Source of the DNA: an uncultured Oscillospiraceae bacterium
GTDB lineage: Bacteria; Bacillota; Clostridia; Acetivibrionales; DTU013
Direction: 5' to 3'
DNA: 64,000 nt
Assembly (NCBI GenBank): GCA_964512095.1
Contig: CAZEIH010000001.1
Location: 126,091-190,090, forward strand
Shown here: one piece after another, positions 1-19,566 of the stretch
Numbering within the stretch: the stretch's first letter is position 1
Layout of the letters: each line of letters begins with the position of its first letter
Notes under the pieces: model-generated
Seen by the model: the letters and a program-made list of their open reading frames with translations, nothing else
Database searches by the model: none
What the model was told of the DNA's origin: nothing
Made by a program: the position numbers and the translations under genes

Positions 1-3000
1 GTCAAAGGGATAAACAGGTAGGCTTATTCTTGCATATTTCCGGTTTCCATAAATCCGCTCCCAATCTACAGCTCCACCCTGCACATAAAGACTGCATAAT
101 TCTTTTCCAAGCCTGCTATTTGCACAATTGGAAGCTATAAACCTCTCGGTTATATCTGCAGTCTGTCTATTAATCTCTGCTCTCCTTTCCTCCAGCTCCA
201 TCACTTGTCCAATATCCTGCACCCTGGACTGCATATCTGTTTCGCCAAAGAAAACATCCTCCATATTTACTTTATTGAGATTAGCCATGTTTAAAGCACT
301 TATCTTTTTGCAAATATCCTTATAGCCATCGAATAGAATAGCAAGCCTTTTGACATGATGTCCTCTTCCTGTGTTAGCCGTAAAACAGATATTACCAAGC
401 ATATTACTGTCCATAACCTTACTGTTAAAAAACTCGTCATATTCGGACACCAGCTTTTCTAAGCTCTCAAGTTTTCCAGCTGATAATGTTAATATATAAG
501 GCATATCTGTCTTTATTTCAGAACTGTAGCTGTCGGGTGCATCCTCCAGAACAAAATGACAATTGGTTCCACCAATACCAAAGGAGCTTACTCCACAGCG
601 TATTGGTGTATTGCTTCCCTTTATACATTTTGATTTTGTGTTTACATAAAATGCTGTTTGAGTAAAGTCAATCTTATCATTAGGCTCGTTAAACTCAATA
701 GAAGGCGGAATTTCTTTATTTTTTAGTGATAAGACCGCCTTTATCAGTCCAATCAGACCAGCACTTTCATACAGATGACCAAAATTCGATTTGACAGAAC
801 CTATAGCACAAAACTGTTTTTTTGATGTAAATTTTGACATTGCTTCCTGAAGACCTTCAACCTCAATGACATCGCCGATTTTTGTTCCTGTTCCATGGGC
901 TTCTATCCATGACAGAGTTTCAGGATTAATTCCCGCATTTCTCCATGCCTTCAAAATAACCTCACTCTGATATCTTGCACTGGGTACAGTAATCCCAACT
1001 GATGCACCATCCTGGTTTACAGCGCTACCCTTTATCACTGCATATATATTGTCTCTATCTACCAGAGCCCGGTTCAAGGGCTTTATCATAACAGCTATAA
1101 CGCCCTCTCCAGTACCTGACCCGTCTGCGTATTTGTCAAAAGTTCTGGTCATATTATCCGATGATTCTATACCAATTTTGTAGTAATCTTTATCACAGGG
1201 AATATAATTGATTCTTGAACTACCCACTACAGCAGCATCACAGTCTCCGTTTTTAATTGCCTGGCAGGCCATATGCAAGGCTACAAGAGATGAAGAGCAC
1301 GCCGTATCTATAACCATACTAGGCCCTTTAACATCCAGAGTGTAGGAAACCCTGTTAGGGATAAGTGCAGAAATGTTTCCAATTGCACAAATGGGAAGTG
1401 ATTCCGGATCTGTATCATGAATCATTTCTTTATATTTATAAAATTCAGAATCGCTAATCTGTCCTACAAATACGCCAATATTTTCTCCCTTAAGCTTATC
1501 TCCGCCATATCCAGAGTCCTCTACTGCATGGATTACAGTTTCCAAAAACATTCTCTGGGCAGGATTCATAAGACCTGCTTCCCTGGGTGAAATCCTGAAG
1601 AAGGAGTAATCAAATTCATCAATGTTTTTCAGGTATGCTCCCTCATAAAACTTAAGGTTTGTATTTTTCTCATCTTTGAACTCCAGGTATCGTTCAATAT
1701 CAGCCTTTCTTGACATAGGAAACTCTGTAGCAAAGCAGATACCGTTGCGTATGCCCTCCCAGAATTCATCAAGCTCATCTACGATAGGCAATGCAGCATT
1801 AATACCAATAATTGCAATGTCCTCATGAGATAACTCTGAAGTATAGCCGCAGGCTGCCACTTCTTGAGACACATCAATATTTTCAGTGTTATTGCTTAAT
1901 CCTCTGATATACTCAGCCAATTTTCTGACTGTTGGATATGTAAACAAATCAGATATCTTTATTATTCCCGGGTAAATATCATCAAGCCTTGAGTGAACAT
2001 TGGTCAGTAATATGGAGTTGCCGCCAAACTCAATTAAATTGTCATCTAAGCCAATACTATCAGTTCCAATAACATTTCTGACTATATGTATTAGAGTTTC
2101 TTCAATCCTATCCTTTGGAATATCCTGATGACCAGCTGATTTAGCAATATCCTTTTCCAATACAGCTATATCATTTAGAACCTTTTCAAATTCATTATTC
2201 CCATAATTGTCAGCAAGCTTATATCTTTCTATTTTACCGCTGGTAGTCTTTGGGATCTTTTTCAAAGGAATTATACTGTCTATTTCCAATCCCATAATCA
2301 AACGAATATGTCTTTTTAGTTGTATAGCCAGAGGAACAAATGCATCCAATGACTTTTTAAAATATACAAAAAGAATGACTATATCTCTGGCCTTTTCAGT
2401 GCTATAGCAGCTACATGCAGCAGTTTCTCCAGGCTTGGTGCCCTCTACCGCTTCGGCCACTCTTTCAATATCATGTGCATAGTAATTCTGACCATGTACA
2501 AATATTACATCCTTTGCCCTGCCTGTGATAATTAGCCGTCCATCCCGGACAAATCCAAGATCTCCGGTATTCAACCAGCCCTCTGAAGATATAGTACCAG
2601 CGGTGGTATCAGTGTCATTATAATATCCCTTTGTAACATTAGTACCCTTGATCTGAACATATCCCACCATGTACTCTCCAAGGACATTATTATACTCATC
2701 ACATATCCGAATGTCACAAAAATCTATAGGGAATCCAAGGTCTACAAATGCCACTGATTGGTCATTCTTTGTATCTGAAACCCTTGCCCTGTCACCAACA
2801 CTTAATGATTTTCTGTCAATATTGACACTAACGAACTTCTCGTTAACAGGCGGGAAGGTAACTGCAAGACTGGCTTCGGCCAGTCCGTATACTGGAAATA
2901 TTACATTGCCTCTAAGCCCATACCTATCCATATAATTTAGAAACTTCTCACATACATCAGTCGAAATAGGCTCTGCTCCATTTAGGATTAGTCGAAGATT

Positions 3001-3879
3001 ACTTAAATCCCAGGTGTACTCATCCTTATTTTCTATCATTTTAATAAGGTACTGATATCCAAAATTAGGAGAAACGGTTATTGTTATTTTATGCTCGCTA
3101 GCCTTTTCCATCCATAGCCAAGGACGTCGAACAAACAAGCTTGTAGGCATGATGTAATGATTTATGGCAAATGACAGAGGTACAAGATGACATCCTATTA
3201 AACCCATATCATGAGTTAGAGGCATCCAGCTTAGCGCTACATCCTCATGTTTCAATTCAATGTTTTTCATAATAGAGAATATATTGGTGGTCAAATTGCT
3301 GTGAGTTAAAACCACACCCTTTGGTGAGCCTGTGGAGCCTGAGGAAAATTGAATAAATGCTATATCATCAGTACTGATTTTTGCTATCTGTCCCTTACTC
3401 TCAGAAGCTTCCAGCTCACTCAACATTATCACACCAGCTTTTATCTGTTGAAAACTACAGTTAATGTCGCAAATCACATCAAAGCTCTCAAGTGCATCTA
3501 ATACATCTGGTGTTGTAACCATGTGAGGATTATTCAGCTTATCCCATACCTTGTATAGTTTTAACTTATGTTCATTATTTTTTCCTACTGTAATTGGAAC
3601 AGGTATAATCCCTCCAAGAATACACGCCCAAAATAGAACAACAAAGGATTCTACATGATCAATCTGCAGAATCAATTCATCACCCCTGGCTACTCCTTTT
3701 GCCTGTAGACCATAAAGGACGCGTAATGCTTTTCTATACAAATCTTCATATGAAATAAAGTGCTCCTCATTCTCACCAAAAATAGAGGTTATACCTTTTC
3801 CCGGTACACCTCGAGCACTTTCAAGAGCCTCAATCAGAGTTGAAAATTTAACTATTTCTGATCCCGCCTTTATTAAAAT
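1..3879 (-). CDS. Hybrid polyketide synthase, N-terminal part: fatty-acyl-AMP-ligase-like adenylation domain, carrier protein, ketosynthase, short post-KS linker. The 3' end runs off the left edge of the window.
   Basis: Own translation of the minus strand; absent from the ORF track because there is no stop in the window. Adenylation motifs FIQFSSGSTGSPKGVVLTH, GWLNTGDLGF, IPKTTSGKIERY. Carrier motif LIEFGGNSILL (Ser codon at 2014-2016). KS motifs VIDTACSSSLVALHMA (Cys codon at 1297-1299), EAHGTGTKIGD, KSNFGHL, GGTNCHFVLED. Ends with ISLPVYPFD at the window edge. The start is ambiguous (ATT 3879 or CTG 3837). Confidence 0.85.
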   Translation of the reverse strand, partial: MLIKAGSEIVKFSTLIEALESARGVPGKGITSIFGENEEHFISYEDLYRKALRVLYGLQAKGVARGDELILQIDHVESFVVLFWACILGGIIPVPITVGKNNEHKLKLYKVWDKLNNPHMVTTPDVLDALESFDVICDINCSFQQIKAGVIMLSELEASESKGQIAKISTDDIAFIQFSSGSTGSPKGVVLTHSNLTTNIFSIMKNIELKHEDVALSWMPLTHDMGLIGCHLVPLSFAINHYIMPTSLFVRRPWLWMEKASEHKITITVSPNFGYQYLIKMIENKDEYTWDLSNLRLILNGAEPISTDVCEKFLNYMDRYGLRGNVIFPVYGLAEASLAVTFPPVNEKFVSVNIDRKSLSVGDRARVSDTKNDQSVAFVDLGFPIDFCDIRICDEYNNVLGEYMVGYVQIKGTNVTKGYYNDTDTTAGTISSEGWLNTGDLGFVRDGRLIITGRAKDVIFVHGQNYYAHDIERVAEAVEGTKPGETAACSCYSTEKARDIVILFVYFKKSLDAFVPLAIQLKRHIRLIMGLEIDSIIPLKKIPKTTSGKIERYKLADNYGNNEFEKVLNDIAVLEKDIAKSAGHQDIPKDRIEETLIHIVRNVIGTDSIGLDDNLIEFGGNSILLTNVHSRLDDIYPGIIKISDLFTYPTVRKLAEYIRGLSNNTENIDVSQEVAACGYTSELSHEDIAIIGINAALPIVDELDEFWEGIRNGICFATEFPMSRKADIERYLEFKDEKNTNLKFYEGAYLKNIDEFDYSFFRISPREAGLMNPAQRMFLETVIHAVEDSGYGGDKLKGENIGVFVGQISDSEFYKYKEMIHDTDPESLPICAIGNISALIPNRVSYTLDVKGPSMVIDTACSSSLVALHMACQAIKNGDCDAAVVGSSRINYIPCDKDYYKIGIESSDNMTRTFDKYADGSGTGEGVIAVMIKPLNRALVDRDNIYAVIKGSAVNQDGASVGITVPSARYQSEVILKAWRNAGINPETLSWIEAHGTGTKIGDVIEVEGLQEAMSKFTSKKQFCAIGSVKSNFGHLYESAGLIGLIKAVLSLKNKEIPPSIEFNEPNDKIDFTQTAFYVNTKSKCIKGSNTPIRCGVSSFGIGGTNCHFVLEDAPDSYSSEIKTDMPYILTLSAGKLESLEKLVSEYDEFFNSKVMDSNMLGNICFTANTGRGHHVKRLAILFDGYKDICKKISALNMANLNKVNMEDVFFGETDMQSRVQDIGQVMELEERRAEINRQTADITERFIASNCANSRLGKELCSLYVQGGAVDWERIYGNRKYARISLPVYPFD

Positions 3880-3884
3880 TTTTG

Positions 3885-4772
3885 TTATCCTTTGATACCG
3901 GAAAGCTGAAGTCCTTCCACTAGATAATTTTCACCATATAGAAATATCAAAAGCATTGGTATCATGTAAAGGGCTGAGGATGCAAATGCAATACCCAGCT
4001 CATTCTTATTTATTGAAGAAAGCATTATGGATAATGGATAATCCTTCAATTCCCTGAGAAAAACCAAAGGCTGCTCAACAATATTCCAATTATCAATAAA
4101 CAGCAAGATTACTAATGAAGCAATACCTGTTTTAGTCATAGGGAGAATAATACTGAAAAATATGTTTAAGTGACCTCCCCCATCTACCTTCACTGCTTCC
4201 GAGTACTCATCAGGGATGTACATCATGAACTGCCGCAATAAAAAAACTCCAAAGGTAGAGAAAACACCAGGTAATATTATTGATGATAAACGACCTATTA
4301 ATCCAAGCTTATCCGCTACGATATAGTTAGGCACAAGCGTCACCTGGAAGGGCATCAGCATGGTAACGATATAGATGAAAAACAACTGATCCCTAAATCT
4401 AAACTTGAATTTGGAAAATCCATATGCCGCCATTGATGCAATTAATAGCTGTCCTAAAATTATTGGAACCACTATTTTTACAGAATTCCAAAAATAAAAA
4501 AGATAATTATTGTTTTTTATCATAATGTCATAGTATTGCTCTATAACAACAATTTGAGGTATAAATTTAAATATACTGAAATCATCAGCCTTAATGTCGT
4601 CCCCCCCCATATATACATTGGAATTGACAGCTTTATAGGCATCAAATATCTCATCCTCCGACATAAAGGAATTAGTCATTGTAACTATTATTGGCAATAG
4701 AAAGGCCAGGGCAACGATACCTATAACAAATGTTAATGCTGCTTTTTTAACTTTTCGTTTTGCATTACGCAT
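3885..4772 (-). CDS. Carbohydrate-type ABC transporter permease (MalG-like, CUT1 family)
   Basis: 295-aa ORF with multiple TM segments and an EAA-loop-like motif SEAVKVDGGGHLNIFFSIILPM. Adjacent to a second permease and a binding protein. Confidence 0.8.
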   Translation of the reverse strand: MRNAKRKVKKAALTFVIGIVALAFLLPIIVTMTNSFMSEDEIFDAYKAVNSNVYMGGDDIKADDFSIFKFIPQIVVIEQYYDIMIKNNNYLFYFWNSVKIVVPIILGQLLIASMAAYGFSKFKFRFRDQLFFIYIVTMLMPFQVTLVPNYIVADKLGLIGRLSSIILPGVFSTFGVFLLRQFMMYIPDEYSEAVKVDGGGHLNIFFSIILPMTKTGIASLVILLFIDNWNIVEQPLVFLRELKDYPLSIMLSSINKNELGIAFASSALYMIPMLLIFLYGENYLVEGLQLSGIKG

Positions 4773-4807
4773 TTGTACTCCCCCCCTCTAATCTCAACCT
4801 ACATTTA

Positions 4808-5683
4808 CTATATTATTGCTTTGCTGATTTTTCTCTCAGCCCTAAACAGTACAAATACTAGTATATAAATAACAAATCCCATTACAAACGCCGCCGACGT
4901 CAGCTTTTGATAGTCTAAAGCCGCAAAGGTGTTATTCATATAATGCTGAAGCATATAGATACTATCATGGGGGTAATCCCCTGACGTTAGATATATCTCC
5001 CTGAAAACCTTGAATGAATTAATAATGGACATTATAAAAACAAAAAATGTCGTAGGTGTTAAATATACCAAAGTAATTTTTGTAAACTTTTTAAATGAAC
5101 TGGCACCGTCTATATCCGCGGATTCATAGTACTGCCTGGGGATATTCTGCAATCCGGCAAGAAAAAGGACTAGATTATACCCGATATTTTTCCACAAATA
5201 TATAACCAGAACAACTACAACAGACCATTTGGTATTCATCCAATCAACTGCTTCTACTTCGAAAGCCGATAGTATGCTATTTGCCATTCCCTTCTCATGA
5301 AATAATATCTGCCAAAACATAACGACCGATGCCACCGGAACAACCAATGGCGAAACTAAAACGGTTCTGAGTACATTCCGAAAATGAATATCCTTATTGA
5401 TTAGTAAAGCCAGCATCAGCGATATAAGCATAATAGAAGGTACACAGATGCCAGTGAAAAACAATGTGTTGGATGCCGCCTTTCTAAAGCTTTCGCTTTG
5501 AAACAATTGAATGTAGTTTGCCACGCCAACAAAGTTTCTTGAGAAGGCATTGTCAATAAATGAATAGTATATGCCTAAAATGTACGGGAGCAGATAGAAT
5601 ACTAGAAAACCCGCAACACTGGGACCTATAAATATAGCCAGCCAAATCCTATTCTGCCATTTTGAGCCAATGTTCAAAATCAC
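4808..5683 (-). CDS. Carbohydrate-type ABC transporter permease (MalF-like)
   Basis: 291-aa polytopic ORF. ESADIDGASSFKKFTKITLV is an EAA-like loop. Confidence 0.8.
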   Translation of the reverse strand: MILNIGSKWQNRIWLAIFIGPSVAGFLVFYLLPYILGIYYSFIDNAFSRNFVGVANYIQLFQSESFRKAASNTLFFTGICVPSIMLISLMLALLINKDIHFRNVLRTVLVSPLVVPVASVVMFWQILFHEKGMANSILSAFEVEAVDWMNTKWSVVVVLVIYLWKNIGYNLVLFLAGLQNIPRQYYESADIDGASSFKKFTKITLVYLTPTTFFVFIMSIINSFKVFREIYLTSGDYPHDSIYMLQHYMNNTFAALDYQKLTSAAFVMGFVIYILVFVLFRAERKISKAII

Positions 5684-5703
5684 TCATCCCTTCTGCTTTA
5701 TAC

Positions 5704-7080
5704 TTATTCATCAAGATATAATTGTACCTTCCTTTGAATATTCCTTGCGATATCCTCCGCATCTTTCTCACTAAATAAAAAGCTTTTTGAAAATAAAGGT
5801 CCAATTTCTTTTATAACAATAGACTCTATGCGCATGTCACTGTACTGGTACGTATTTATATTATTAATATAGTTATCAATGAAATTTAGTTCATCCTCTG
5901 TAAACCTGATAGCTATCCAGCCCGCCAACTCATCACGTACTCTCCAGTCAAGATTCAATGTTGACTCTTCCTGTCTCTCCATGGCTTCACGGTGTATTGG
6001 GAACCCGGAAGTACCGGCAAAATTCGCATATTTGAATTGAATATCTCTCGACAACAGAATCTTAACAAAATCCCATGCCAGCTCTTTATTTGGCGATGTG
6101 TTGATAATACCAAGCATCAGGTTTGAATCAAAGGAATACTCATCATTTTCTCCTAAGGCAGGAAGTCTAAAAAACACCCGATCACCGCCGCCCAGTGAAT
6201 ATTTGAAGCCTAGTAAAGCTCTATAGCCTTCAAGGGGTCCTCCACTAAATGCAACCTCCTGTGAGTTCTTGTATGGAATCTCCTGAAATAGCTTAATTTG
6301 CGTATGTGTGAGATTATCATCGGAAATACTTTTTAGTGATCTTAAAAGCTCAATAAATTCTGGAGTGTCAAAATATGCCTTCTTATTTTCATAATCAATA
6401 AAGTTCCCTGTATTTATGAAAAGCTTTGCAACACCATCCATGGGCATTTGGGGAAGAGCATACCTGTCCATTGTTCCATCACCATTCAGGTCTTTAGTTA
6501 CTTGTCTTGAAATATTAATAAAATCAGATGCCTTCCATGTATCATCATCTATTACAATACCCTCATCATCCAGGATTTCCTTGGAACCGATTACACCGGC
6601 TAATGAGAATTTGAAGGGTATTGCATACAAGGTTCCATTATATCTACCGGCTTCCACAACATTTGTAATCAGTGAGTCATAATCGAAGCTTTCATCTGAC
6701 TCTATCATTTCTCCTAAATCAGCAAAGATGCTTTTTCTATAGTATTTCATAGCAGGTAAGTATGTAATGGGGACTATGTCAGGACCCTTCCCTGCCATTA
6801 GCTCAGTGTTTATAACACTTACATATCTCTCGATATCATAACCCATTTTAGACATATCATTTATGTCCACTGTTGCATCAGGATGCATTTTTTCAAATAC
6901 CTTAACAGCATTATTTATTATACCTTCATCTGTTTTTGACAAATAAGCACAGGTGAAGGTAATCACATTTCTTCCTTGTTCGTCTACTCTTCTTGTGTTT
7001 AGTTCCCCCTCACCGCATGAAGTTAGTAATGTTACAAATACAAGTAATACACTAAAAATACACATTTTCTTATAAAGCAT
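5704..7080 (-). CDS. Extracellular solute-binding lipoprotein (family 1-like)
   Basis: 458 aa with a signal peptide and lipobox LLTSC. RBS GGAGGAGGGG upstream. Sits in an SBP-permease-permease arrangement. Confidence 0.75.
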   Translation of the reverse strand: MLYKKMCIFSVLLVFVTLLTSCGEGELNTRRVDEQGRNVITFTCAYLSKTDEGIINNAVKVFEKMHPDATVDINDMSKMGYDIERYVSVINTELMAGKGPDIVPITYLPAMKYYRKSIFADLGEMIESDESFDYDSLITNVVEAGRYNGTLYAIPFKFSLAGVIGSKEILDDEGIVIDDDTWKASDFINISRQVTKDLNGDGTMDRYALPQMPMDGVAKLFINTGNFIDYENKKAYFDTPEFIELLRSLKSISDDNLTHTQIKLFQEIPYKNSQEVAFSGGPLEGYRALLGFKYSLGGGDRVFFRLPALGENDEYSFDSNLMLGIINTSPNKELAWDFVKILLSRDIQFKYANFAGTSGFPIHREAMERQEESTLNLDWRVRDELAGWIAIRFTEDELNFIDNYINNINTYQYSDMRIESIVIKEIGPLFSKSFLFSEKDAEDIARNIQRKVQLYLDE

Positions 7081-8557
7081 GATACCCCTCCTCCACTAAC
7101 GCTGCTTTCTTTATTTGTGTCTTCAGAAGACGCTGACCTCTATAGGTCGGCGATGAATGAAGACGAATATATGTATAAACCACACTGGTAGATATATAGC
7201 CCCATATCACACAAATACTCTTAAGCTTTACTTGATATGGCAGTCCCATCATAGCTGACAAAAGAATTGCTAGAATTATTGATGCAACGAAAAAGCAACT
7301 ACTGAGGACAGCTACCCTGGTAACTTGTGTATTTCCCTGAAAGAATTGATAGATACCTATATGAAACCCAGGGATTCCAATAATGATAGCAAGAAAGAAG
7401 AGTACATTTGTTAGCTTTTCTGATATTTCGTACTCAAGCTGAGTATGACTCTTAAGAACATTCAGCTCCTGATTATACTCATATATTTTGCTATCTATTA
7501 AATCCTCATAATACTTAGTATCAATTAGATCATCATGTAAATACTCCTGTGGTATATACAAATCAAATCTCACAGCAAGAATGACCACCACTACTAGCAA
7601 AAGACCAACTAGAGTTTTTATTAATTGTATAGCCAACAGGCGCTTGTTTCCGGAAATGATATCGGATAAATAATTACTTGCTGTCATTGCTTTAATAGTC
7701 TTAAATGTGTTAACCAATGTTCTTTTTATATATGAAACTATGAGTAATACGGTTATAATCCCTATTATTAACAAAATAATCTCAGGCTTTTGCTTAAGCA
7801 TTGTCATATTCTTATTAAAATCAGATATAACATAATTTGGTGCCCATTTTCCTATTGAATAAAGTGCATCACTAACCATATTTTCATTTTCACCTACTAG
7901 AATTTCTGTATCAGTTTTTATAAAAATAGTATCAATCAGTATGCCTTTATCAATCTCCATTAATGTGTTAGCAGGAATGTATATGCTACTCAAGCCATCA
8001 CTTGAGAGCCTTTCAATGATATTCTCATTGCTTCGGTCATCAAGAATCTTGTACTTTTCATACACGCCTACCACTTCAAAGTCTTTGTCGTAAAGTTTAA
8101 CCTCCTGCCCCACAACGTCAGTGCTGTTAAATATCTCCAATGCCAAATTTGCATCTAAAACTACCACATATTTGAGCTCCTCTCCCTTATAGCTAAAGAG
8201 GCTTCCAGATACCATGTCAATATTAACAAAGTTCTTATAATAAGGATTTACACCATATACCTTTGTGTAATAATTTCGGTTGTCTTTTTCTATAGCTGCA
8301 TTAGTTAATGCATAATACCCGATTTCCTCTGTCTCAAGCTCTTCCTCAAGATTTTCTATGTCCCGGGACGAAAAGAGAAGGGCAGGCGTTTTATTTTTAG
8401 CTGTAACACTAGCTTTGCTCATCCCATTGAACCCATTCATATTTAGAATCGCATTGCTTATATTGATATTGATTAATATCGCAGCTACAAGGACGGCTAT
8501 CCCCAGGAATATGAGCAGTATCGGTAACTTTTTCATTCCAGGATTCCTCTCATTCAT
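7070..8557 (-). CDS. Membrane permease, MacB/FtsX-like (tentative)
   Basis: 495 aa: N-terminal TM, a large extracytoplasmic domain, then C-terminal TM bundles. Its start overlaps the HlyD-like gene by 4 nt. The last ~30 codons run through a 46-bp palindromic repeat. Confidence 0.5.
   Translation of the reverse strand: MNERNPGMKKLPILLIFLGIAVLVAAILININISNAILNMNGFNGMSKASVTAKNKTPALLFSSRDIENLEEELETEEIGYYALTNAAIEKDNRNYYTKVYGVNPYYKNFVNIDMVSGSLFSYKGEELKYVVVLDANLALEIFNSTDVVGQEVKLYDKDFEVVGVYEKYKILDDRSNENIIERLSSDGLSSIYIPANTLMEIDKGILIDTIFIKTDTEILVGENENMVSDALYSIGKWAPNYVISDFNKNMTMLKQKPEIILLIIGIITVLLIVSYIKRTLVNTFKTIKAMTASNYLSDIISGNKRLLAIQLIKTLVGLLLVVVVILAVRFDLYIPQEYLHDDLIDTKYYEDLIDSKIYEYNQELNVLKSHTQLEYEISEKLTNVLFFLAIIIGIPGFHIGIYQFFQGNTQVTRVAVLSSCFFVASIILAILLSAMMGLPYQVKLKSICVIWGYISTSVVYTYIRLHSSPTYRGQRLLKTQIKKAALVEEGYHAL
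7119..7164. repeat. 46-bp palindromic element, copy A (GTCTTCA...TGAAGAC outer stem, inner stem CGCTGACC/GGTCGGCG)
   Basis: 41 of 46 positions identical to 9942-9987 by manual alignment. Internal dyad symmetry. Confidence 0.7.
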
Positions 8558-9891
8558 TCTTCCATTTGATATTCTAATAATATACGTCCTTTATCTTTCA
8601 AGGGCTTATCCGTTTTTACTACTATCCGATCATCGGGAGTAATTCCTCCTTCAATGGCTGTTTGATTGTTGTCGGAATCCAGTATATTTACATCTAGAAT
8701 TTCTATATAATTTTCTTTTCCAAGGAATCCATTTCTCTCCATAACCACCCATACATAACCTTGCTCTTCATCAATACCAGGTATTACAGCTGAATTAGGT
8801 ACAAGATAGGTGTAATTCAATGTATCCCTTTCAATGTATATCTGACCCTTTTCCCCGCCACTGATTCTGTCTATCAGCATTTTCACATCTTCAGTATTAG
8901 CTTCAGCATTTTCATCAGTAATCTCTGCGACAATTTCCTTTTTGACACCTTTGAAATTTTTACTCTCTCCAACCCGAACGACCGTCCCAGTCAGTAGATC
9001 CGATCCAAGCGCAATAACCTTAACTGACACCTTATCATCGACTTGAACAAGATCTGCACTATCGATGTCAATGTCTGTAACGAATCTGAAAGAACTATCC
9101 TTGTGTGTAATCGTTAATAGCTTCGTTGTCTTACTGACCCAGTTACCATTGGAGGCATGTATATCCTTTACTACACCATCCACTGGTGAATATATCATGT
9201 AGGAATCATCATCTCCCATTTTCTCCTTATGTATTTTCATGTCCAGCTCAAACCTCTTAATGCTGGACAACTCTTTATTTCTTGATATCTCATACCCCTT
9301 ACTTTTAGTATCATATTCCTTTTTAGCAATCTCATAGCTCAATTCAACATTCTTGTAATTTTCCTGTGATTCTGCGCCAATCTCAAAGAGCTCCTTAACA
9401 GAATTCATTCTTCTTTCTGCCTGCTCATAATTTTTCAATGCAATATCTATCTCAGCCTGAAGACTTAATTGATTTACACCTGCATTATAATCATCCAACA
9501 TTTCCTTATATGCAAGCTCCATTTTCTCATATGTTAGCTCGTCAATTTTTTTCTGTCTTGTCGCCGTATCTCCGTCCACAGGTTCCACTATTGCCAGAAG
9601 ATCACCCTTTGAAACCATATCGCCATATTCTACTTTAATTTCTTTAACCTTGCAGCTTACATCAGAGTCCATATAAATATCAGTAAAGCTTACTGCCTCA
9701 ATATATCCGTCTCCAGTAATCTTTTTCATCAGAGATCCTTCTATCGGATTTTCAGCAGTGACTTTTGGCAACAGAAAGTTATTAATAGTATTAGAAAAAA
9801 ATGTAAGCAAAAAAATCGTTCCAAAAAAAATCAGTATTAGCCTACTAATGGTCTTTTTTTTCATATTATTCGCAACATCAACGTTTGCCAT
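8554..9891 (-). CDS. HlyD-family / efflux adaptor (membrane fusion) protein
   Basis: 445 aa: N-terminal TM, a lipoyl-like segment (VKEIKVEYGDMVSKGDLLAIVEP), a long coiled-coil-like region, and a C-terminal beta-rich domain. Confidence 0.7.
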   Translation of the reverse strand: MANVDVANNMKKKTISRLILIFFGTIFLLTFFSNTINNFLLPKVTAENPIEGSLMKKITGDGYIEAVSFTDIYMDSDVSCKVKEIKVEYGDMVSKGDLLAIVEPVDGDTATRQKKIDELTYEKMELAYKEMLDDYNAGVNQLSLQAEIDIALKNYEQAERRMNSVKELFEIGAESQENYKNVELSYEIAKKEYDTKSKGYEISRNKELSSIKRFELDMKIHKEKMGDDDSYMIYSPVDGVVKDIHASNGNWVSKTTKLLTITHKDSSFRFVTDIDIDSADLVQVDDKVSVKVIALGSDLLTGTVVRVGESKNFKGVKKEIVAEITDENAEANTEDVKMLIDRISGGEKGQIYIERDTLNYTYLVPNSAVIPGIDEEQGYVWVVMERNGFLGKENYIEILDVNILDSDNNQTAIEGGITPDDRIVVKTDKPLKDKGRILLEYQMEE

Positions 9892-9990: not shown

Positions 9991-10779
9991 TTAATTAACT
10001 TCCTCCTCCTGACTCCCTGAGCGAAGCGAATTGACTTTAGAATAATATACTGCATTAAAAATCGCCGGCACAATAAAGGTCAGTAAAGATGACAATATAT
10101 ACGGTACATAATTCCGAATTCGAAAAAGCACAAATCTTGGATCCAAATCCAACTGCATCGACTGTATGATGTAGTATGGCACATTCCACGGTAGTATCCT
10201 CAAATAATCAGCCCCTGTAAGCTGGGGATTCATTATGTAAATCAGGACTGACAATGCAACAGGTAGCACATAGGTTCTACTGACAATACACACCATAACG
10301 CAGATTGGTACCACTGAAAAAAACAGTAGAATAACTGCTAAACAAACTTTAAAGTGATAATATATTAATTGCCAGTTCATCTTCCCCCCAATGACCAATA
10401 TGCCGAACAAAATAGTTAGAAAAAATACGGCAAGTACCATAATAGAAGTAATAATAAGAATCACAACATGCTTTGAAATCATGAACATTGGCCTTGCATA
10501 TGGATACATAAACTGATTCACGATTTCACTATTCTTATACTCCGTTACAAAAATCCAAATTGCTATGAAAATAATTGACATCATCAATATTCCATTTGAC
10601 ATTTCTAACTCAACAAAAGGAAGTAGATAATTCATATCAATTACATTACCGTAACTATTCCGAACACGAATCCAGTTTATAATGCCCAGCGTAACAGGAA
10701 CAACAATACCGACAGGGATCAGCAATAATATTTTTGTCCTCTTCAATTTCATGAATTCAGTAAAAATCAAGTTGTGCAA
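9991..10779 (-). CDS. ABC-2 type permease (lantibiotic-immunity-like)
   Basis: 262 aa with about 6 TM segments, directly downstream of the ABC NBD gene (2-nt gap). TTG start. Confidence 0.65.
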   Translation of the reverse strand: MHNLIFTEFMKLKRTKILLLIPVGIVVPVTLGIINWIRVRNSYGNVIDMNYLLPFVELEMSNGILMMSIIFIAIWIFVTEYKNSEIVNQFMYPYARPMFMISKHVVILIITSIMVLAVFFLTILFGILVIGGKMNWQLIYYHFKVCLAVILLFFSVVPICVMVCIVSRTYVLPVALSVLIYIMNPQLTGADYLRILPWNVPYYIIQSMQLDLDPRFVLFRIRNYVPYILSSLLTFIVPAIFNAVYYSKVNSLRSGSQEEEVN

Positions 10780-10781: not shown

Positions 10782-11705
10782 TTACCCTCCGGTCAAACTC
10801 AAAAAATGATCCTCCAGCGTATTTGTTTCAATCCTAATCTCTATTACACTAATACCCTCCTGCATAAGCGTACGGTTGATGTCAGCTGTGTTTTCATTGC
10901 TGTTATATATTTGGAATAGATTGTCTTGAACAATCCTGTAATCACGGATTCCCATTTTCTCTTCAAAAACAAGCGATGCCTTTCTGCTATCATTTACTCT
11001 AAGCTCAATATAATTTCTGTTTGCTTTACAAAAATCTAATGGATCAATTTCATCCACAAGACTCCCCTTATGTACTATCCCAATCCTGCTGGCAATTTGA
11101 TCTGCCTCGCTCAATATGTTTGTAGATAAAATCACTGTAACACGCTGATATAACGAGAGATCCAGTAATAACTTCCTAATATCACGAATCCCCGCCGGAT
11201 CCAGCCCACTTAAGGGATCCTCTAGAATCAGTAAATCCGGATTGTGTACCAAAGCTCTAGCCAAGGATATCTTTTGTTTAGTCGCAAACGATAGATTCTT
11301 AACAAGGTGGTGCTTGTATTCATATAAACCTAGACGTTTTAATGCCTGCTCCACATATGAGGAATCAGGAATACTCATCAATCGCCTATGGAGCTCCATA
11401 TTCTCAAAAACTGTCAGGTTGGGATATAAGCCGGGTTCTGTCAAGGTTGAGCCGACTCGCCGCAGATACCTGTATTCTGAGGTGTTCACCTCTCTTCCAA
11501 ACAATTCGATTGAGCCTGATGTAGGCCTTACTAGTCCGGTAAACATTCTAATAATTGTATTAACACCTGAATCGCTACGTCCCAGTAAAGTATATATCTC
11601 TCCTCTTTTAACGCTAATATTAATTTTATTAATACTATGGCAGTTCTTAAAATCCTTTGACAGATTGTATGCTTTTAGTACTTCCGAAATCATACCCTCC
11701 TTCAC
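10782..11705 (-). CDS. ABC transporter nucleotide-binding-domain protein with degenerate catalytic motifs
   Basis: 307 aa with overall NBD layout. Walker A is GRSDSGVNT (Lys absent), the signature is LSFAT, Walker B is LLILEDP, and the switch region is STN instead of SSH. Confidence 0.8.
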   Translation of the reverse strand: MKEGMISEVLKAYNLSKDFKNCHSINKINISVKRGEIYTLLGRSDSGVNTIIRMFTGLVRPTSGSIELFGREVNTSEYRYLRRVGSTLTEPGLYPNLTVFENMELHRRLMSIPDSSYVEQALKRLGLYEYKHHLVKNLSFATKQKISLARALVHNPDLLILEDPLSGLDPAGIRDIRKLLLDLSLYQRVTVILSTNILSEADQIASRIGIVHKGSLVDEIDPLDFCKANRNYIELRVNDSRKASLVFEEKMGIRDYRIVQDNLFQIYNSNENTADINRTLMQEGISVIEIRIETNTLEDHFLSLTGG

Positions 11706-11767
11706 ACTGCTATTCTATTATATAATGTCTTATCTTAAATAATCATGACTTAATTATTACAAAAGTC

Positions 11768-12682
11768 TTAAATTGATTTTTTTAGAAAGAAGCTAAGTGT
11801 TGTCTTTTCATTCGGTACAATACTAACACCGATTTCACCATTCATATTCTGCACTAACCTTTTTGCTATAGGCAGGCCAAGTCCGCTGCTTCCCTCACAA
11901 TGGTTTCGTGCAATATACAGTCTGGAAAATACGTCCTTTATTTCATCCTGACTGATTCCCTCTCCCTGATTCCATACATCTACCCACACCCTTTCTGGCT
12001 CCTCTCTCAAAGTGATGCCAAAGTAGCTCCCTGGTTTTCCATACCGCAATACATTAGATAGAAGGTTTTGAAGAATCCTATTGATACTGGTTTCATCTCC
12101 CCATACATACAAATCCTTTTCAGGAATATCGATTACAGCAGAAAGCTCTACTTTTATCAGATCCTGATACATAAAGCAGAGCATTTTTTTAACTAGTTCT
12201 GATAGATTCTGTTTTGTTAGTCTTACGTCAGTGTTGTCCGCTTCAAGCTTAGCGTACTCAAACATATCGTCTATGAATTTGTGTAGCCTTTCTCCCTTAC
12301 ACGCAACAATTTCTATATATCGATTTCTATCCCTCTCCACTAATGATGGCTTACTACTCAACTCATCAATATAGCCTAAAATAGATGTTAAAGGTGTTCT
12401 TATGTCATGGGACAAGTCTGAAATGAATTGTTTTGTCATAATTTCATTTCTTTTGATTTTCTCAACTATACCCTGATATTCTTGAATCAATGAGTTTATA
12501 CGTTGAGCTAGGGCACATATGGATTTTGAGTTATTGGAAACGTAGCATATTCTGCTTTTGTTTTCCAAAAGAATATCATCCAGAGTAACGGTGACCTCTC
12601 GCAGGCCTTTTATCAGTAGGTTAAGCTTTATGGACAATAACAAAACTGTAGTGCACAATAGCACAATAACAACATAAATCAT
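11768..12682 (-). CDS. Sensor histidine kinase (single N-terminal TM, HisKA + HATPase_c)
   Basis: H-box FISDLSHDIRTPLTSILGY. C-terminal ATPase motifs (NLLSNVLRYG, GSSGLGLPIAKRLV). Confidence 0.85.
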   Translation of the reverse strand: MIYVVIVLLCTTVLLLSIKLNLLIKGLREVTVTLDDILLENKSRICYVSNNSKSICALAQRINSLIQEYQGIVEKIKRNEIMTKQFISDLSHDIRTPLTSILGYIDELSSKPSLVERDRNRYIEIVACKGERLHKFIDDMFEYAKLEADNTDVRLTKQNLSELVKKMLCFMYQDLIKVELSAVIDIPEKDLYVWGDETSINRILQNLLSNVLRYGKPGSYFGITLREEPERVWVDVWNQGEGISQDEIKDVFSRLYIARNHCEGSSGLGLPIAKRLVQNMNGEIGVSIVPNEKTTLSFFLKKSI

Positions 12683-12745: not shown

Positions 12746-13465
12746 TTAGGACCACAAAACAATTTCATCACAAAGCTCGTCCATGTCAATAATTTGAACA
12801 TCTTTACAAAACTCGCCACTTAATGAGCATGCTGCCACTTTATATTCCGAATCAATATGATACTGCCTAAAATAATAATGGCGTAGCAAATCCTCTGTAG
12901 CTAGACTAATAACCTGACTAGTATTATCTATAGAGATTGTAAAGGAATCCAACGGGATGGATAGCCCTCTGCCCACAGCTTTAACATAGCTCTCCTTCAA
13001 CGTCCACAAATCGTAGAAAAAAGCTTCTCTTTCATGTGTATCCTTTTGCATTATTGCCTCAGCCTCACGCTCTGAGAAAAAGCGATCTACTATACTGATA
13101 TCAATAGGCTTTATTTGTTCCACATCAATTCCCACCGGCAAATAGTCAATACCGCAGATCACCCATTTACCGGCATGCGAGATATTGTACTCAATTCCAT
13201 GATTACCTGTAAGAAATGGTTTGCCATATTCATTTTCACGAAACACCAGCTCCTGATTTTTGATTCTTAGCTTACTGCAAATCAAATATCTAGTTAGCAC
13301 ATCACCCATTAGGGTTCTTTGTGCATCCTCGTACTTGTAGAACCTTTGCACTCTCTGTCGTTTTTCCTCTGAAACGACTGATAGGAGCCGGATAAATATA
13401 TCATTTTCAAGTAAATGGTCCAAATTAATCCCATAAATTCTCAAACCCATATTTACTTCTTTCAT
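12746..13465 (-). CDS. Sfp-type 4'-phosphopantetheinyl transferase
   Basis: Motifs GKPFL, YNISHAGKWV, VGIDVEQI, WTLKESYVKAVG. The true start may be the internal MGLRIYG (13450). Confidence 0.85.
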   Translation of the reverse strand: MKEVNMGLRIYGINLDHLLENDIFIRLLSVVSEEKRQRVQRFYKYEDAQRTLMGDVLTRYLICSKLRIKNQELVFRENEYGKPFLTGNHGIEYNISHAGKWVICGIDYLPVGIDVEQIKPIDISIVDRFFSEREAEAIMQKDTHEREAFFYDLWTLKESYVKAVGRGLSIPLDSFTISIDNTSQVISLATEDLLRHYYFRQYHIDSEYKVAACSLSGEFCKDVQIIDMDELCDEIVLWS

Positions 13466-15730: not shown

Positions 15731-15886
15731 TTATACCGCTTTTGAGTTGCTCCCCTGATATTTTGCTTTTGTTGCTTCCCCTCCCCTGATATGCCTTTCT
15801 GCTTTGTTTTCCTCCAGAATGACCCTCACGTCTTCAGCAAGCTCAGGGCTCACCCTTAGCAATCGTTCCGTTACATCCTTGTGCAC
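15731..15886 (-). CDS. spoIIID: spoIIID 3' segment (C-terminal 49 codons plus stop) of a split gene
   Basis: Encodes VHKDVTERLLRVSPELAEDVRVILEENKAERHIRGGEATKAKYQGSNSKAV*, colinear with the C-terminal half of SpoIIID (KSTVHKD...RGG.GGE motif region). The upstream part of the 95-aa track ORF is element DNA. Confidence 0.85.
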   Translation of the reverse strand: MHKDVTERLLRVSPELAEDVRVILEENKAERHIRGGEATKAKYQGSNSKAV

Positions 15887-17489
15887 GGTTGTCAGTATCG
15901 GCGACGCTATTTTCAACAGGCGACATGAGGAATGTTCCCGACAAAAGAATAGGGAAGTTAAGGCCTTCCACGTCCTCGCTGATGTTGAAATAAACGTAGA
16001 TCTCATCCACAGACACAATTTTAATCTCTTTGATTATTTTCTTTAAGTCAGCATTCTCAATGCTTTCAGTAAAACTAAATTTATCAAAAATCTCAATAAA
16101 CTGCTTTAGACTCTCCCTGATCTGACGATTCAGTTCTCTGGTCTTGTCGGTGCTATCCAGCTTGAATGATAACCTTTCAATTTCGGCATTGATGGGAACC
16201 ATATCCTGCTTCGCTTCATCCATGGTAATAAGACCATTCACAGCCAATTCCTTTAGCCTGTCACGTTTGCTATGCAACTCACTTAGGTCTGCTTTCGCCT
16301 CATCAAGATCAATGCCATTGTTATCCCTGATATACTCCCTGATTAAACTATTGCACTTGCGCTCAACCTCATCAAAGAAAGATACTTTTCCCTCTACCAG
16401 ATAACTAAAAAGACTGTCCAATCCTTCTTTAAGCCAATCTTCATTTATTCTGGTGTATTCAGATTCGCAGCGGTTTTTGCCATAGGCACTTCTTTTAGAG
16501 CATGTCCACCAAACATACAACGGGCCATCTTTAGAGTGCCTTCTTTGATAACGCCTGTAAGAAAAACCGCATGAACCGCATTTAATTAAGTTGGAAAATA
16601 AATGCTTATTGCTCCTGCGTGAAAATATGTCTTGATAGAGTTCAGCGTTTTTCTTCGTCTGTTCCAGAGCCTTATAAAATTGCTCATCAGATATGATTCT
16701 AAACTCCGGTCTGTCCACCACATACCACTCTTCTTCCGGGTTTTCCTTGCGCTTGTTGGTAAATATATCTGTACTGCTCTCTTTGCCATTGATGACTTGG
16801 CCAATATATATTTCATTTCTCAAAATATTACCCACCGTGTTTTGCGACCAATTATAGTTGGGCTGTCCGTCTTTCAGTTTTTTGGTCTGCACTCGGTTCT
16901 CAAATAAATAGGAAGCGATTCTTGCCATGCCCCATTCTTCTTCCGTATATAAGTCGAAAATTTTCTTGACCCATTCGCTTTCTTCAGGGTTAGGCTCTAA
17001 ATTATATGCATCTATCCTATCATAGCCAAAGACGAAATTAGGCACACGGCCTTTTTCTTTGCCGAATTGCTTTCCAAACTTCACTTTTTCTGAGATGCGC
17101 TGGGATTCACTTTCAGCCAGCATAGCCATAAGATTTAAAGTGAAACCATCAATATCCTTGCCTTCGCCCATATTGACAAGATGCAGATTCACTCCATACA
17201 AGCTCAATTCTCTAGTAACGGTGATAAAATCAAGTGTGTTTCTAAAAAGCCTGCTGATATCTTTAACATAGAGCTTTTCAAATTCTCCACGCTTGGCGGC
17301 TTTTCTCAATCGCTGCAAATCTTTTCTGTTTTGCATCTTTGTAGCAGACTTGCCCTTATCACAATAAATCGCTACTAGTTCATCTCCCCTTTTGGGAATA
17401 TAGCTTTCAAAAAACTCACGCTGATTTTCCAGCGAGCTTTGTTGTTCTTCTTTATCTGTACTAACCCTAATATAAGCGACAGCCTTCAT
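15843..17489 (-). CDS. Large serine recombinase (rec1)
   Basis: 548 aa. N-terminal resolvase catalytic motif AVAYIRVSTDKEEQ, a recombinase domain, and a Cys-rich zinc-ribbon (CGSCGFSYRR...WWTCSKR...C). RBS GAGAGGTG. The ORF reads across attL into host DNA. Confidence 0.9.
   Translation of the reverse strand: MKAVAYIRVSTDKEEQQSSLENQREFFESYIPKRGDELVAIYCDKGKSATKMQNRKDLQRLRKAAKRGEFEKLYVKDISRLFRNTLDFITVTRELSLYGVNLHLVNMGEGKDIDGFTLNLMAMLAESESQRISEKVKFGKQFGKEKGRVPNFVFGYDRIDAYNLEPNPEESEWVKKIFDLYTEEEWGMARIASYLFENRVQTKKLKDGQPNYNWSQNTVGNILRNEIYIGQVINGKESSTDIFTNKRKENPEEEWYVVDRPEFRIISDEQFYKALEQTKKNAELYQDIFSRRSNKHLFSNLIKCGSCGFSYRRYQRRHSKDGPLYVWWTCSKRSAYGKNRCESEYTRINEDWLKEGLDSLFSYLVEGKVSFFDEVERKCNSLIREYIRDNNGIDLDEAKADLSELHSKRDRLKELAVNGLITMDEAKQDMVPINAEIERLSFKLDSTDKTRELNRQIRESLKQFIEIFDKFSFTESIENADLKKIIKEIKIVSVDEIYVYFNISEDVEGLNFPILLSGTFLMSPVENSVADTDNRAQGCNGTIAKGEP
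15880..15886. other. attL core: left copy of the 7-bp direct repeat TGTGCAC
   Basis: Identical heptamer at 38024-38030. It lies exactly at the point where SpoIIID-like coding breaks off. Confidence 0.75.
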
Positions 17490-17534
17490 ACGGATTCACC
17501 TCTCTGTCATATCTCCTATATATTTAATGGTTCT

Positions 17535-17563
17535 ATTATAACGAAATGAATTTTTTTGGTCAA
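17535..17563 (-). promoter_or_regulatory. Near-consensus sigma-A-type promoter for rec1: TTGACC, 17-nt spacer, TATAAT
   Basis: Minus-strand TTGACC at 17563-17558 and TATAAT at 17540-17535, with a 17-nt spacer. About 45 nt upstream of the rec1 ATG. Confidence 0.55.
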
Positions 17564-17564
17564 G

Positions 17565-17599
17565 AAATGAAAACAGGGCAGCTTATGCGCTGTCCTGTT
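17565..17599 (-). terminator. Hairpin plus T-rich tract between the small ORFs and the rec1 promoter
   Basis: Stem AACAGGACAGC / GCTGCCCTGTT (17572-17599), followed on the minus strand by TTTCATTTC. Confidence 0.5.
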
Positions 17600-17750
17600 C
17601 TGTGTATGTACTATCGGTTGAGTTAATGGATTTTATCGCCGCCGCTACGATGCTTTTGGCAACCCCTTGAGACAGTGCATCTAAAATATAACTTAGGATA
17701 GCGGGATCCAGGTTGCTTATTTCACTTTTTTTCTCTAACACCCCTTGCAC
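17583..17750 (-). CDS. Small ORF (55 aa, GTG start), candidate accessory or directionality factor
   Basis: VQGVLEKKSEISNLDPAILSYILDALSQGVAKSIVAAAIKSINSTDSTYTEQDSA. RBS GGGGGTGAG. A similar small ORF lies upstream of rec2. Below the ORF-track size cutoff. Confidence 0.4.
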   Translation of the reverse strand: MQGVLEKKSEISNLDPAILSYILDALSQGVAKSIVAAAIKSINSTDSTYTEQDSA

Positions 17751-17860
17751 TATCTCACCCCCTTTGACCCTGTCCTCTTGCTAATGTATATTGCGGCTTG
17801 GGTGGTTTTATTCCCCTTATTTGGGCGAGCTGTATCTTTGTAAATAAATGGATTTTCCAT
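17750..17860 (-). CDS. Small basic ORF (36 aa)
   Basis: MENPFIYKDTARPNKGNKTTQAAIYISKRTGSKGVR. Strong RBS GGGAGGAAAACT before the ATG. Its stop overlaps the next GTG start (TAGTG). Confidence 0.35.
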   Translation of the reverse strand: MENPFIYKDTARPNKGNKTTQAAIYISKRTGSKGVR

Positions 17861-18015
17861 AGTTTTCCTCCCTATTCGGTTATCTACTATGAAATATCCA
17901 CACGCTCTGTCGCTTAGATTCGGCTAAAACCACCCATGATTAGACCGCCATACATACACGATTAGATGGCTAAATGACGTTCTGCAACAATTCCTAGAAC
18001 ACCAACGACCAAATT

Positions 18016-18394
18016 TTATCCCCCGGCACAACACTTCACAGATAGCAGTTTCCCATTGGCCATCATAAACACTTCAGGATATTTGAACATTTCCAGATAC
18101 TTGCTGGCCAACTCATCTGTAAGACCTTTAAAAATTTTCGCTATCTGGCCTTGCCAAGCAGATAAAGAACGTGCCTGCTATGATTTCATATAAATCGCCC
18201 TTGTCATCGGCAAGTCTCCTGTTTAAGTCCAGCCCATTTATTTTTCCTTCCTCGTTACACACAATTGCTACATGGTCAGCAAAAGGATAGATCGCCTCAA
18301 TATAGCCACCTACAACCTTTTGCATGGCCTTAAGCCCCGAATCTATCTGCCTAATCTCTGCCACCTTGTTTGGCTCTACATAAACCACTTTCAC
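18016..18394 (-). pseudogene. DUF3846-like gene, frameshifted
   Basis: GTG start at 18394 with RBS AGGAGGGG. VKVVYVEPNKVAEIRQIDSGL...AGTFFICLARPDSENF stops at 18128. The expected C-terminus KGLTDELASKYLEMFKYPEVF... continues in the +1 frame to 18016. The shift lies in an A/T homopolymer run. Confidence 0.55.
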
Positions 18395-18618
18395 ATAACC
18401 CCTCCTATACCGACAGCTTACATATTTATCCACCAACTTTAGAACCCCTTGGGTCACTTTGGGTCAACATTGGCACCAAATCCATACCTAATCCTTAGAA
18501 CCACCCTAAACCCCTTTTAAAACCCCTTGGGTCAACCCTGGACACTACTCAAACCATACTTGCGACAACCGACAACCTCCATATTCGCAAAATACATTTT
18601 CCTCGGTTGCGATATGTA

Positions 18619-19194: not shown

Positions 19195-19381
19195 CCGCCT
19201 CTCTTAATTCTTTAAGTTTTCTGCCCATGGCACATTGACTGAATCCCTGCATTCTGGCTAAATCCTTGACCTTGACTCCCTCGTTGCGAAGTTTAACCAG
19301 CTCATGATTAGTCAGTTTCTTCCTGCCTGGGTCTACACCGCCAACCAATTCAATTAGGATCCTGCAAATATGATTGGTCAT
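19160..19381 (-). CDS. Small helix-turn-helix protein (sigma-70 region-4-like)
   Basis: 73 aa. LTNHELVKLRNEGVKVKDLARMQGFSQCAMGRKLKEL resembles an HTH. Confidence 0.45.
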   Translation of the reverse strand: MTNHICRILIELVGGVDPGRKKLTNHELVKLRNEGVKVKDLARMQGFSQCAMGRKLKELREAGVLHDREAENN

Positions 19382-19497
19382 TTTTCACCGTTGATTTGAT
19401 GTCAGCGATGGGGAGTTTCTATTTTTGTTTCATGTACCAGAATTTCTGTACCTTCCTTCCTCGTTCTTGAAGTAAATTGAATTTTCCATGAACTGTA

Positions 19498-19526: not shown

Positions 19527-19566
19527 CTATGTGTACTCTATTGCATTAGAGAAAGGAGCGGTTAAT

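Follow-up and report, generated by a model that had tools for sequence, protein, structure and literature searches.

What becomes of an ATP-binding cassette (ABC) nucleotide-binding domain (NBD) in which every motif for handling ATP has degenerated, and why would a genome keep it? The question is raised by a gene on the reverse strand (10782..11693) of a 64-kb stretch of DNA from an uncultured Oscillospiraceae bacterium (contig CAZEIH010000001.1), which we call the window. This gene encodes a 303-residue protein, here named NBD*, that consists of an ABC NBD and a C-terminal regulatory-type domain, with all of the ATP motifs degenerate. Comparisons with its homologs (P-numbers) and their loci (L-numbers) firmly support two sequence-based conclusions, namely that NBD* has lost the residues needed for ATP binding and hydrolysis and is predicted to be catalytically dead, and that it appears to be kept by purifying selection as a non-catalytic ABC module, not as a pseudogene. 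More tentatively, we favor the view that the dead complex of NBD* and its permease may act as a sensor or scaffold for a neighboring histidine kinase (HK) without a sensor domain, an efflux and sensing module having been co-opted as a regulator.

Reading frame and family assignment of NBD*

The mechanically called open reading frame (ORF; 10782..11705, reverse strand), which begins at a GTG at 11705, was confirmed. The likely start, however, is the ATG at 11693, as the GTG lies upstream of a ribosome-binding site (GGAGG, 11696..11700) located 2 nt 5' of this ATG, and as the same 303-residue call is made in five public assemblies. The initial annotation, drawn from the window's letters and a list of its ORFs, had described a full-length ORF, and indeed the frame is intact and covers a complete NBD and C-terminal domain. 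Moreover, five sequences of more than 90% identity from separate assemblies carry identical motifs, which argues against a sequencing artefact as the cause of the motif loss.

By sequence and fold homology, NBD* belongs to the ABC ATPase superfamily. It matches Pfam ABC_tran (PF00005) at 1e-24, and against the Protein Data Bank (PDB) it retrieves 260 NBD sequences at E<1e-10 (phmmer). The top NCBIfam match is the lantibiotic-protection ABC ATPase family TIGR03740, although the score (176.7 bits) does not reach the cutoff (309.75).

Loss of the ATP-binding and catalytic motifs

The motif register in NBD* was taken from three alignments: phmmer against NBD1 and NBD2 of ABCA4, a 22-sequence MAFFT alignment, and BLASTP to a YcbN-type ATPase from Bacillus halotolerans (L178), which spans 299 residues with zero gaps and 34% identity. 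Here, Walker A (11556-11582, with this and the following motifs on the reverse strand) reads GRSDSGVNT in place of the canonical GxNGAGKTT, the Lys being replaced by Val and the fourth Gly by Asp. In the Q-loop region (11424-11453), Thr85 is found where the family has Glu (E85T), while the signature (11271-11294) is LSFAT (in LSFATKQK) as opposed to the [FL]SLGM that is canonical in the family. The Walker B and catalytic segment (11214-11234) is LLILED(P) instead of LLILDE, and the H-loop (11109-11129) is STN (in LSTNILS) instead of SSH (H192N). The D-loop (11196-11213), by comparison, is retained as LSGLDP, with LDP invariant within the clade described below. Of the features that define the superfamily, NBD* therefore lacks Walker A, the signature, Walker B with its catalytic Glu, the H-loop His, and the Q-loop Gln/Glu, and keeps the SxLD of the D-loop.

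None of the three alignments revealed a canonical ATP motif at an offset position in NBD*, and so these alignments bear out the by-eye placement of the degenerate Walker A, signature, and switch histidine in the initial annotation. For Walker B, the observed LLILED was read correctly, but not as the swap of Asp and Glu that was proposed; since relatives carry ILDDP, the apparent swap is instead two successive substitutions. The Walker A and B, signature, and switch His residues are required for ATP binding and hydrolysis.

Rarity of the clade and stepwise degeneration

Among 5.8 billion proteins, the degenerate clade comprises seven clusters (P0001-P0005, P0009, and P0025), and among 1.84 billion representatives it forms one 50%-identity cluster, with the score falling from 417 to ~280 bits at the next match. 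Among the matches listed from GTDB species genomes and JGI metagenome contigs there were no further clade members, only canonical relatives at ≤37% identity. One clade member, P0009, had seemed to be an N-terminally truncated NBD* (235 residues), but this is a start-calling artefact, since in L170 an open, conserved frame extends across Walker A.

Within a set of 268 homolog clusters, the Walker A Lys is missing only from the NBD* clade, being kept in 261/261 clusters outside it, and the catalytic Glu is kept in 260/261; the combined loss of Lys and Glu is accordingly far from chance. Throughout the clade, the Lys is absent (position 44 is V/I/T/T/M) and the catalytic Glu is changed to Asp, whereas all 21 canonical sister proteins retain their ATP motifs. 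The degeneration also comes in steps. A milder sub-branch (L002, L003, and L170) still has GRNGAG.., LSSG., ILDDP, and SSH, and a more degenerate one (the window, L004, L167, and L173) has GRSDSG.., LS[FP]A., ILEDP, and S[TS]N.

Might the former ATP site have become a new pocket, binding a metabolite or polyketide, with NBD* as a cytoplasmic sensor? Several substitutions are fixed or nearly so in the clade (E159D in 7/7, R141K in 7/7, F36L in 5/5, and G143S in 6/7), as such a neofunctionalised site would lead one to expect. Against this, the site residues differ between the sub-branches (GRSDSG[VIT].. versus GRNGAG[TM]SI; LSFAT, LSPAT, or LSSGM; STN versus SSH), and this variation of the motif residues within the clade points to relaxed constraint on the ATP site with no new conserved pocket. 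We consider a repurposed pocket highly improbable.

Purifying selection and retained structure

Estimates of dN/dS were made by the method of Nei and Gojobori, from comparisons at unsaturated dS (0.6-1.1). For NBD*, the values are 0.08-0.13, which is about as low as for the adjacent response regulator (RR; 0.09) and HK (0.11-0.13) and lower than for its own permease (0.19-0.25), with the other operon genes at 0.07-0.29. The amino acid identity of NBD* between lineages is 57-87%, equal to or higher than that of most neighboring genes, although two permeases of the BPD_transp_1 family are more conserved. Moreover, the window and five other lineages have an intact ORF, with synonymous sites saturated between them.

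The losses in NBD* are unevenly placed. At the 84 positions that are near-invariant in the 21 canonical sisters, the clade has lost 13/21 in the ATP motifs against 10/63 elsewhere (Fisher p=1e-4), and the window copy still retains 60/84. Conserved in the clade are the PGLYPNLT segment after the Q-loop, the LDP of the D-loop, and 12/13 of the invariant positions in the C-terminal domain; the segment after the Q-loop is the part that touches the permease in ABC transporters. In keeping with this, the AlphaFold2 (AF2) model has a predicted local distance difference test (pLDDT) score of 85.8 and a confident NBD and C-terminal domain, and Foldseek gave as its best matches TM_1403 (PDB ID: 4YER), NosF, and the NBD-regulatory domain units of the ABCA family (ABCA4). 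Accordingly, the statement in the initial annotation that the fold-defining flanks are intact is upheld by both the modeled NBD fold and the invariants kept outside the motifs.

In some lineages the gene has been eroded. The three L173-L175 assemblies, all from one project, share a 1-nt deletion near codon 72 of NBD* (1894-2804 in L173), for which a recent inactivation, a splitting of the gene, and an error common to the three assemblies are all conceivable; both halves have a dN/dS of 0.08-0.13 when compared with L167. In L176 (7433-8614), the RR, HK, and NBD* genes and most of the permease gene are deleted, with a 3' remnant of the permease left at 8431-8559, while the genes from the HlyD-like adaptor through the polyketide synthase (PKS) are intact.

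A separate pattern is found between the window and its close relative L001, whose NBD* sequences (98% identical) differ by seven nonsynonymous and three synonymous changes, the ratio for the other genes being 10:25 (p=0.03). Taken at face value, this gives a dN/dS of 0.66, which we discounted as a sign of relaxation, given that nine of the ten differences (six nonsynonymous, three synonymous) cluster in codons 232-266 (10896-11000, in the C-terminal domain). Two haplotypes of this 35-codon tract occur among the five near-identical sequences, and the pattern suggests recombination.

Together, such events are what one would cite for NBD* as a slowly decaying relic, which lost its function on being joined to the front of the PKS operon and is now eroding lineage by lineage: an RR lost from the window lineage, a frameshift in L173-L175, a whole module deleted in L176, and the nonsynonymous excess with L001. 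Yet dN/dS is about 0.1 in all deeper comparisons, inclusive of both halves of the frameshifted copy, six lineages hold an intact ORF, most of the family-invariant positions survive, the promoter and ribosome-binding site are conserved, and the changes relative to L001 sit in one tract as recombination would place them. Of the usual marks of a pseudogene, a disrupted frame is seen only in L173-L175, and a neutral dN/dS near 1 is not observed. We therefore judge a decaying relic to be quite unlikely. The initial annotation had argued for a retained module instead of a random pseudogene and had proposed a survey of orthologs with dN/dS; this survey, with intact ORFs in at least six lineages and losses concentrated at ATP-contacting positions, supports that argument and gives no sign of random decay.

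A possible second NBD as the energy source

With a single NBD gene, the initial annotation reasoned, the homodimer would have two dead sites, and this holds for the window, as no other NBD gene occurs in its 64 kb. Alternatively, NBD* could dimerise with a canonical NBD whose gene lies elsewhere and which energises the permease, in the manner of asymmetric ABC transporters. Heterodimeric ABC transporters often have a degenerate site (PMC7756269), and at the end of the operon in L167-L169, and only there, lies a canonical NBD (GPNGAGKTT, ILDEP, and SSH) with an ABC-2 permease (19143-20072 in L167; 14277-15958 in L168). However, this second NBD in L167 has a permease of its own, and no second NBD adjoins the operon in L002, L003, L170, L173, or L176. 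Known asymmetric transporters divide the Walker A/B/H and the signature changes between their two chains, whereas in NBD* all of these deviations are on the same chain, and any heterodimer would therefore have damage at both of its composite sites. Energising by a separate NBD is, in our estimation, very unlikely. By analogy, the canonical pair in L167 and L168 could serve as an effector pump alongside the dead sensor-like module, as in BraDE/VraDE.

The adjacent kinase, permease, and promoter

As the initial annotation noted, NBD* adjoins a histidine kinase and an ABC-2 permease, here placed at 11768..12682 and 9991..10779, respectively (both reverse strand). The kinase (304 residues; HisKA and HATPase_c) has a single N-terminal transmembrane (TM) helix (residues 2-20) and no extracytoplasmic domain. 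Its H-box, N-box, and G2 box are intact, and its G1 box is NQGEG, with Asp changed to Asn at residue 238. This change (WNQGEG) was considered as a second dead ATP site, but it is not diagnostic, as Asn is found in 13/120 family kinases, some of which have canonical ABC partners; nine other family kinases with Asn include P0306, which apparently shares a contig with the canonical NBD P0010. The permease (ABC2_membrane_4, 262 residues, ~6 TM helices) starts 2 nt past the NBD* stop codon, a spacing consistent with translational coupling of the two genes.

In L004, L167, L170, and L173, the gene order is RR-HK-NBD-ABC2_membrane_4 permease, with the OmpR-type RR found in L004 (328-1056) and in other lineages as well. 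The window keeps only HK-NBD*-permease. Here, an Sfp-type 4'-phosphopantetheinyl transferase (PPTase; 12746..13465, reverse strand) occupies the position of the RR, and no cognate OmpR-type RR is encoded in the 64 kb, which leaves the kinase an orphan in the window; L001 likewise has the PPTase and no RR.

Between the kinase and NBD* lies a conserved activator-type promoter (11717..11772, reverse strand), which was recognised by aligning six lineages between which synonymous sites are saturated. The shared element of ~55 bp consists of TAAGAC-N5-TAAGA, then TTTAAGA, and then TATAAT. In the window, the direct repeats are TAAGAC-N5-TAATA (11755-11770, inside the element TTTAAGACTTTTGTAATA at 11755-11772), followed by a third repeat, TTTAAGA(TAAGAC), at 11727-11739 and the -10 box TATAAT at 11717-11722. 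The first repeat overlaps the kinase stop codon in the window, but across the six lineages the element sequence is kept with or without such an overlap. There is no good -35 box in the element, which is why a scan for the sigma-70 consensus did not flag the promoter. Direct repeats 11 bp apart before a -10 box are typical of an OmpR-type activator site, and the element is probably a binding site for an OmpR-type RR, as judged from its sequence. It occurs once in the window and once per locus, always between the kinase and NBD*, and is missing from L176, where the module is deleted. NBD* is the first gene downstream of this promoter, in a probably RR-controlled operon that heads the PKS cluster.

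The downstream operon and the polyketide synthase

Synteny in six diverged lineages extends over [RR]-HK-NBD*-ABC-2 permease-HlyD-like adaptor-MacB_PCD membrane protein-solute-binding protein (SBP)-two permeases. In the window, the conserved members of the operon after the ABC-2 permease (all reverse strand) are a HlyD/YknX-like membrane-fusion (adaptor) protein (8554..9891), a MacB_PCD membrane protein (7070..8557) with an N-terminal MacB periplasmic core domain, and a group at 3885..7080 made up of the SBP (5704-7080) and two BPD_transp_1 permeases (4808-5683 and 3885-4772). No FtsX domain was detected in the MacB_PCD protein, nor an ATPase partner for it, and its family comprises seven homolog clusters in 5.8 billion proteins, all within this type of operon. 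An AF2 model of the MacB_PCD protein (eight sequences, pLDDT 41.9) was too poor for classifying the membrane part and was not used. The SBP and two permeases resemble a sugar-type importer without an ATPase gene of its own, and this importer, located right before the PKS, is a constant component of the operon.

The window begins within the 5' part of the PKS megasynthase gene (1..3850, reverse strand), which starts with a fatty-acyl-AMP ligase, an acyl carrier protein, and a ketosynthase and runs past the window start; the gap from the last permease gene is ~30 nt. These PKS starts are orthologous in the window, L003, L170, and L176 (59-77% identity over ~630 residues) and come directly after the operon. 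No lanthipeptide genes were seen in the cluster. In L170, a NusG paralog is also found upstream.

Proposed role of the NBD*-permease module

In the account that we tentatively favor, NBD* would derive from the ATPase subunit of a YcbNO/LanFEG-like type V (ABC-2) exporter, the ability to bind and hydrolyse ATP having disappeared in a common ancestor of a small Clostridia-like clade, and selection would then have retained it as a non-enzymatic protein. A complex of two NBD* and two permease chains would no longer pump, but instead may serve the adjacent kinase from within the membrane, as its ligand-binding or scaffolding partner; this kinase, having only a TM anchor, presumably cannot itself sense outside signals. 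The kinase and RR would drive the promoter before NBD*, and hence the transport genes that follow, with the PKS probably under the same control. On this account, a module for drug sensing and efflux would have become purely regulatory, and the contacts that matter for sensing (the permease-coupling region, the D-loop, and the dimerising C-terminal domain) would have stayed under constraint, and the ATP site would not. Circumstantial support for a sensing or scaffolding role comes from the one-TM kinase without an external domain, from the RR-type direct-repeat promoter directly upstream of NBD* in all lineages, and from the deletion of RR-HK-NBD*-permease as one unit in L176. This joint deletion, with the rest of the operon kept, further suggests that the four genes are a separable unit and group functionally with the two-component system.

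Alternatively, NBD* could be a structural subunit and nothing else, needed by the permease to fold or assemble, with the permease doing an ATP-independent job unrelated to the kinase, which could be the binding or sequestering of polyketide as an immunity protein, passive facilitation, or a part in an assembly with the HlyD-like and MacB_PCD proteins. The conserved permease-coupling region and fold, the apparent translational coupling to the permease, the constant presence of HlyD-like and MacB_PCD genes without an ATPase, and the PKS association all fit with such a role. That L176 keeps the HlyD-MacB_PCD-SBP-permease-PKS genes without NBD* and its permease, which were lost along with the RR and HK, does not, and neither does the faster evolution of the permease than of NBD*. 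A purely structural role is therefore one that we consider unlikely.

The sensor or scaffold proposal has points to its disadvantage as well. The frameshift in one lineage and the deletion of the module in another imply that some backgrounds can do without the function, the window itself is without the cognate RR, and the window and L001 show an excess of nonsynonymous changes in NBD*, though mostly in the one 35-codon tract. Moreover, the link of the kinase to NBD* and the permease is drawn from sequence and gene context. In the Bce-type systems, the one well-studied analogue, signaling needs ATP hydrolysis by the transporter, which NBD* cannot provide. Lastly, even the canonical parent, YcbNO, has no assigned function (PMC11466899).

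A bolder form of the sensor proposal is conceivable, if rather speculative, in which the module is a fully pseudo-enzymatic ABC transporter, with the NBD2-permease2 complex as a dedicated ligand receptor or allosteric partner that switches on the transport operon and PKS through the sensor-less kinase and the module's own promoter. The defining feature of ABC transporters is that ATP drives dimerisation of their NBDs, and each of the degenerate cases that we found in the literature keeps one working site. If true, this would be the first ABC-derived receptor to signal by occupancy instead of by ATP-driven flux. In any event, an NBD that is under selection without a working site offers a test of which ABC functions (assembly, permease coupling, or kinase signaling) can outlive ATP, and it bears on whether kinases in Bce- and Lan-type modules are activated by transport flux or by ligand-dependent conformations alone. 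The link with the PKS, in turn, suggests a route by which antibiotic-sensing modules could be recruited to regulate natural-product biosynthesis.

Other features of the window

Upstream of the cluster is a region that resembles a mobile element (15843-25585 and 36344-37786). It includes two large serine recombinases (15843-17489 and 23864-25585), a BlaR1-type M56 sensor (19907-21796) with a small upstream ORF, and two AAA_14/DUF4143 ATPases (22283-23686 and 36344-37786). Between 26000 and 36000, the G+C content is 0.45-0.50, as compared with ~0.38, and the GC skew is reversed; here, the plus strand encodes SLH-domain, beta-helix, and transglutaminase-like surface proteins and a membrane LuxR-type regulator.

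Comparison with known systems

Judged by sequence, the parent family of NBD* is the uncharacterised YcbLM-YcbNO-type module, which consists of an OmpR-type RR, a one-TM kinase, an NBD, and an ABC-2 permease. The nearest canonical relatives lie in plain RR-HK-NBD-ABC2_membrane_4 modules of this kind (L165 and L166). The L178 locus of B. halotolerans, with neighboring garD, rtpA, and cwlJ-like genes, is ycbLMNO-like, and from these neighbors and the B. subtilis map, we take L178 to be the ycbLMNO locus. PMC11466899 lists YcbN2O2 among the type V exporters, with its function given as unknown. In the Bacillus subtilis group, the YcbLM-YcbNO(P) module has the same order of OmpR-type RR, ~305-residue kinase, ~305-residue NBD with a C-terminal regulatory domain, and ABC2_membrane_4 permease (as seen in L178). 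The NBDs are homologous over their full length, C-terminal domain included, and so are the kinases, with 311-residue Bacillus kinases among the kinase matches. In contrast, YcbN-type proteins have the canonical GPNGAGKTT, FSLGMKQR, LILDEP, and SSH, none of which is present in NBD*. The window also differs in that its operon extends into the HlyD-like, MacB_PCD, SBP, permease, and PKS genes, and in that the RR is missing.

With the lantibiotic immunity system LanFEG and its LanRK regulators, NBD* shares the best family match (TIGR03740), an ABC-2 permease, a link to a two-component system, and a location in a natural-product cluster. Nevertheless, the match is below the family cutoff, there is one permease gene as opposed to two (LanE and LanG), and the cluster is that of a PKS and not of a lantibiotic. 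LanF proteins, unlike NBD*, are active ATPases.

In the Bce-type systems (BceRS-BceAB, BraDE, and VraFG), a kinase without a sensor domain relies on the adjacent ABC transporter, and an RR-dependent promoter precedes the transporter genes (PMC9020739, PMC11466899). BraDE and VraFG are transporters devoted to sensing that are nonetheless active (PMC9020739). Here, the likeness is one of concept, with a one-TM sensor-less kinase beside a transporter and a conserved direct-repeat promoter, putatively an RR site, before NBD*. However, Bce permeases are 10-TM FtsX-type proteins with a large extracellular domain, whereas the NBD* permease is a 262-residue ABC-2 type with ~6 TM helices, and Bce kinases have two TM helices as opposed to one. 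The parallel with Bce-type signaling that was drawn in the initial annotation is thus useful as an analogy, but does not extend to the permease, which is not of the FtsX/BceB type.

As in TM287/288, TmrAB, CFTR, and ABCG5/G8, the catalytic Glu is lost in NBD* (in those systems often to Asp), the H-loop and signature deviate, and the NBD is kept in a structural or mechanical capacity (PMC7756269). Yet in these heterodimers only one site is degenerate, usually without loss of ATP binding, and transport is powered by the other, whereas in NBD* all of the deviations, including the loss of the Walker A Lys, are on one chain, and its homodimer would be without a functional site. In the literature, which we covered incompletely and which therefore makes this a weak negative, no standalone NBD or ABC module with both sites lost is described in a two-component setting. 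As regards the receptor role that we tentatively favor for the NBD*-permease complex, UhpC, yeast Snf3/Rgt2, and Ssy1 are likewise transporter homologs that have been kept as receptors feeding into signaling, although these are homologs of secondary transporters and not of ABC transporters.

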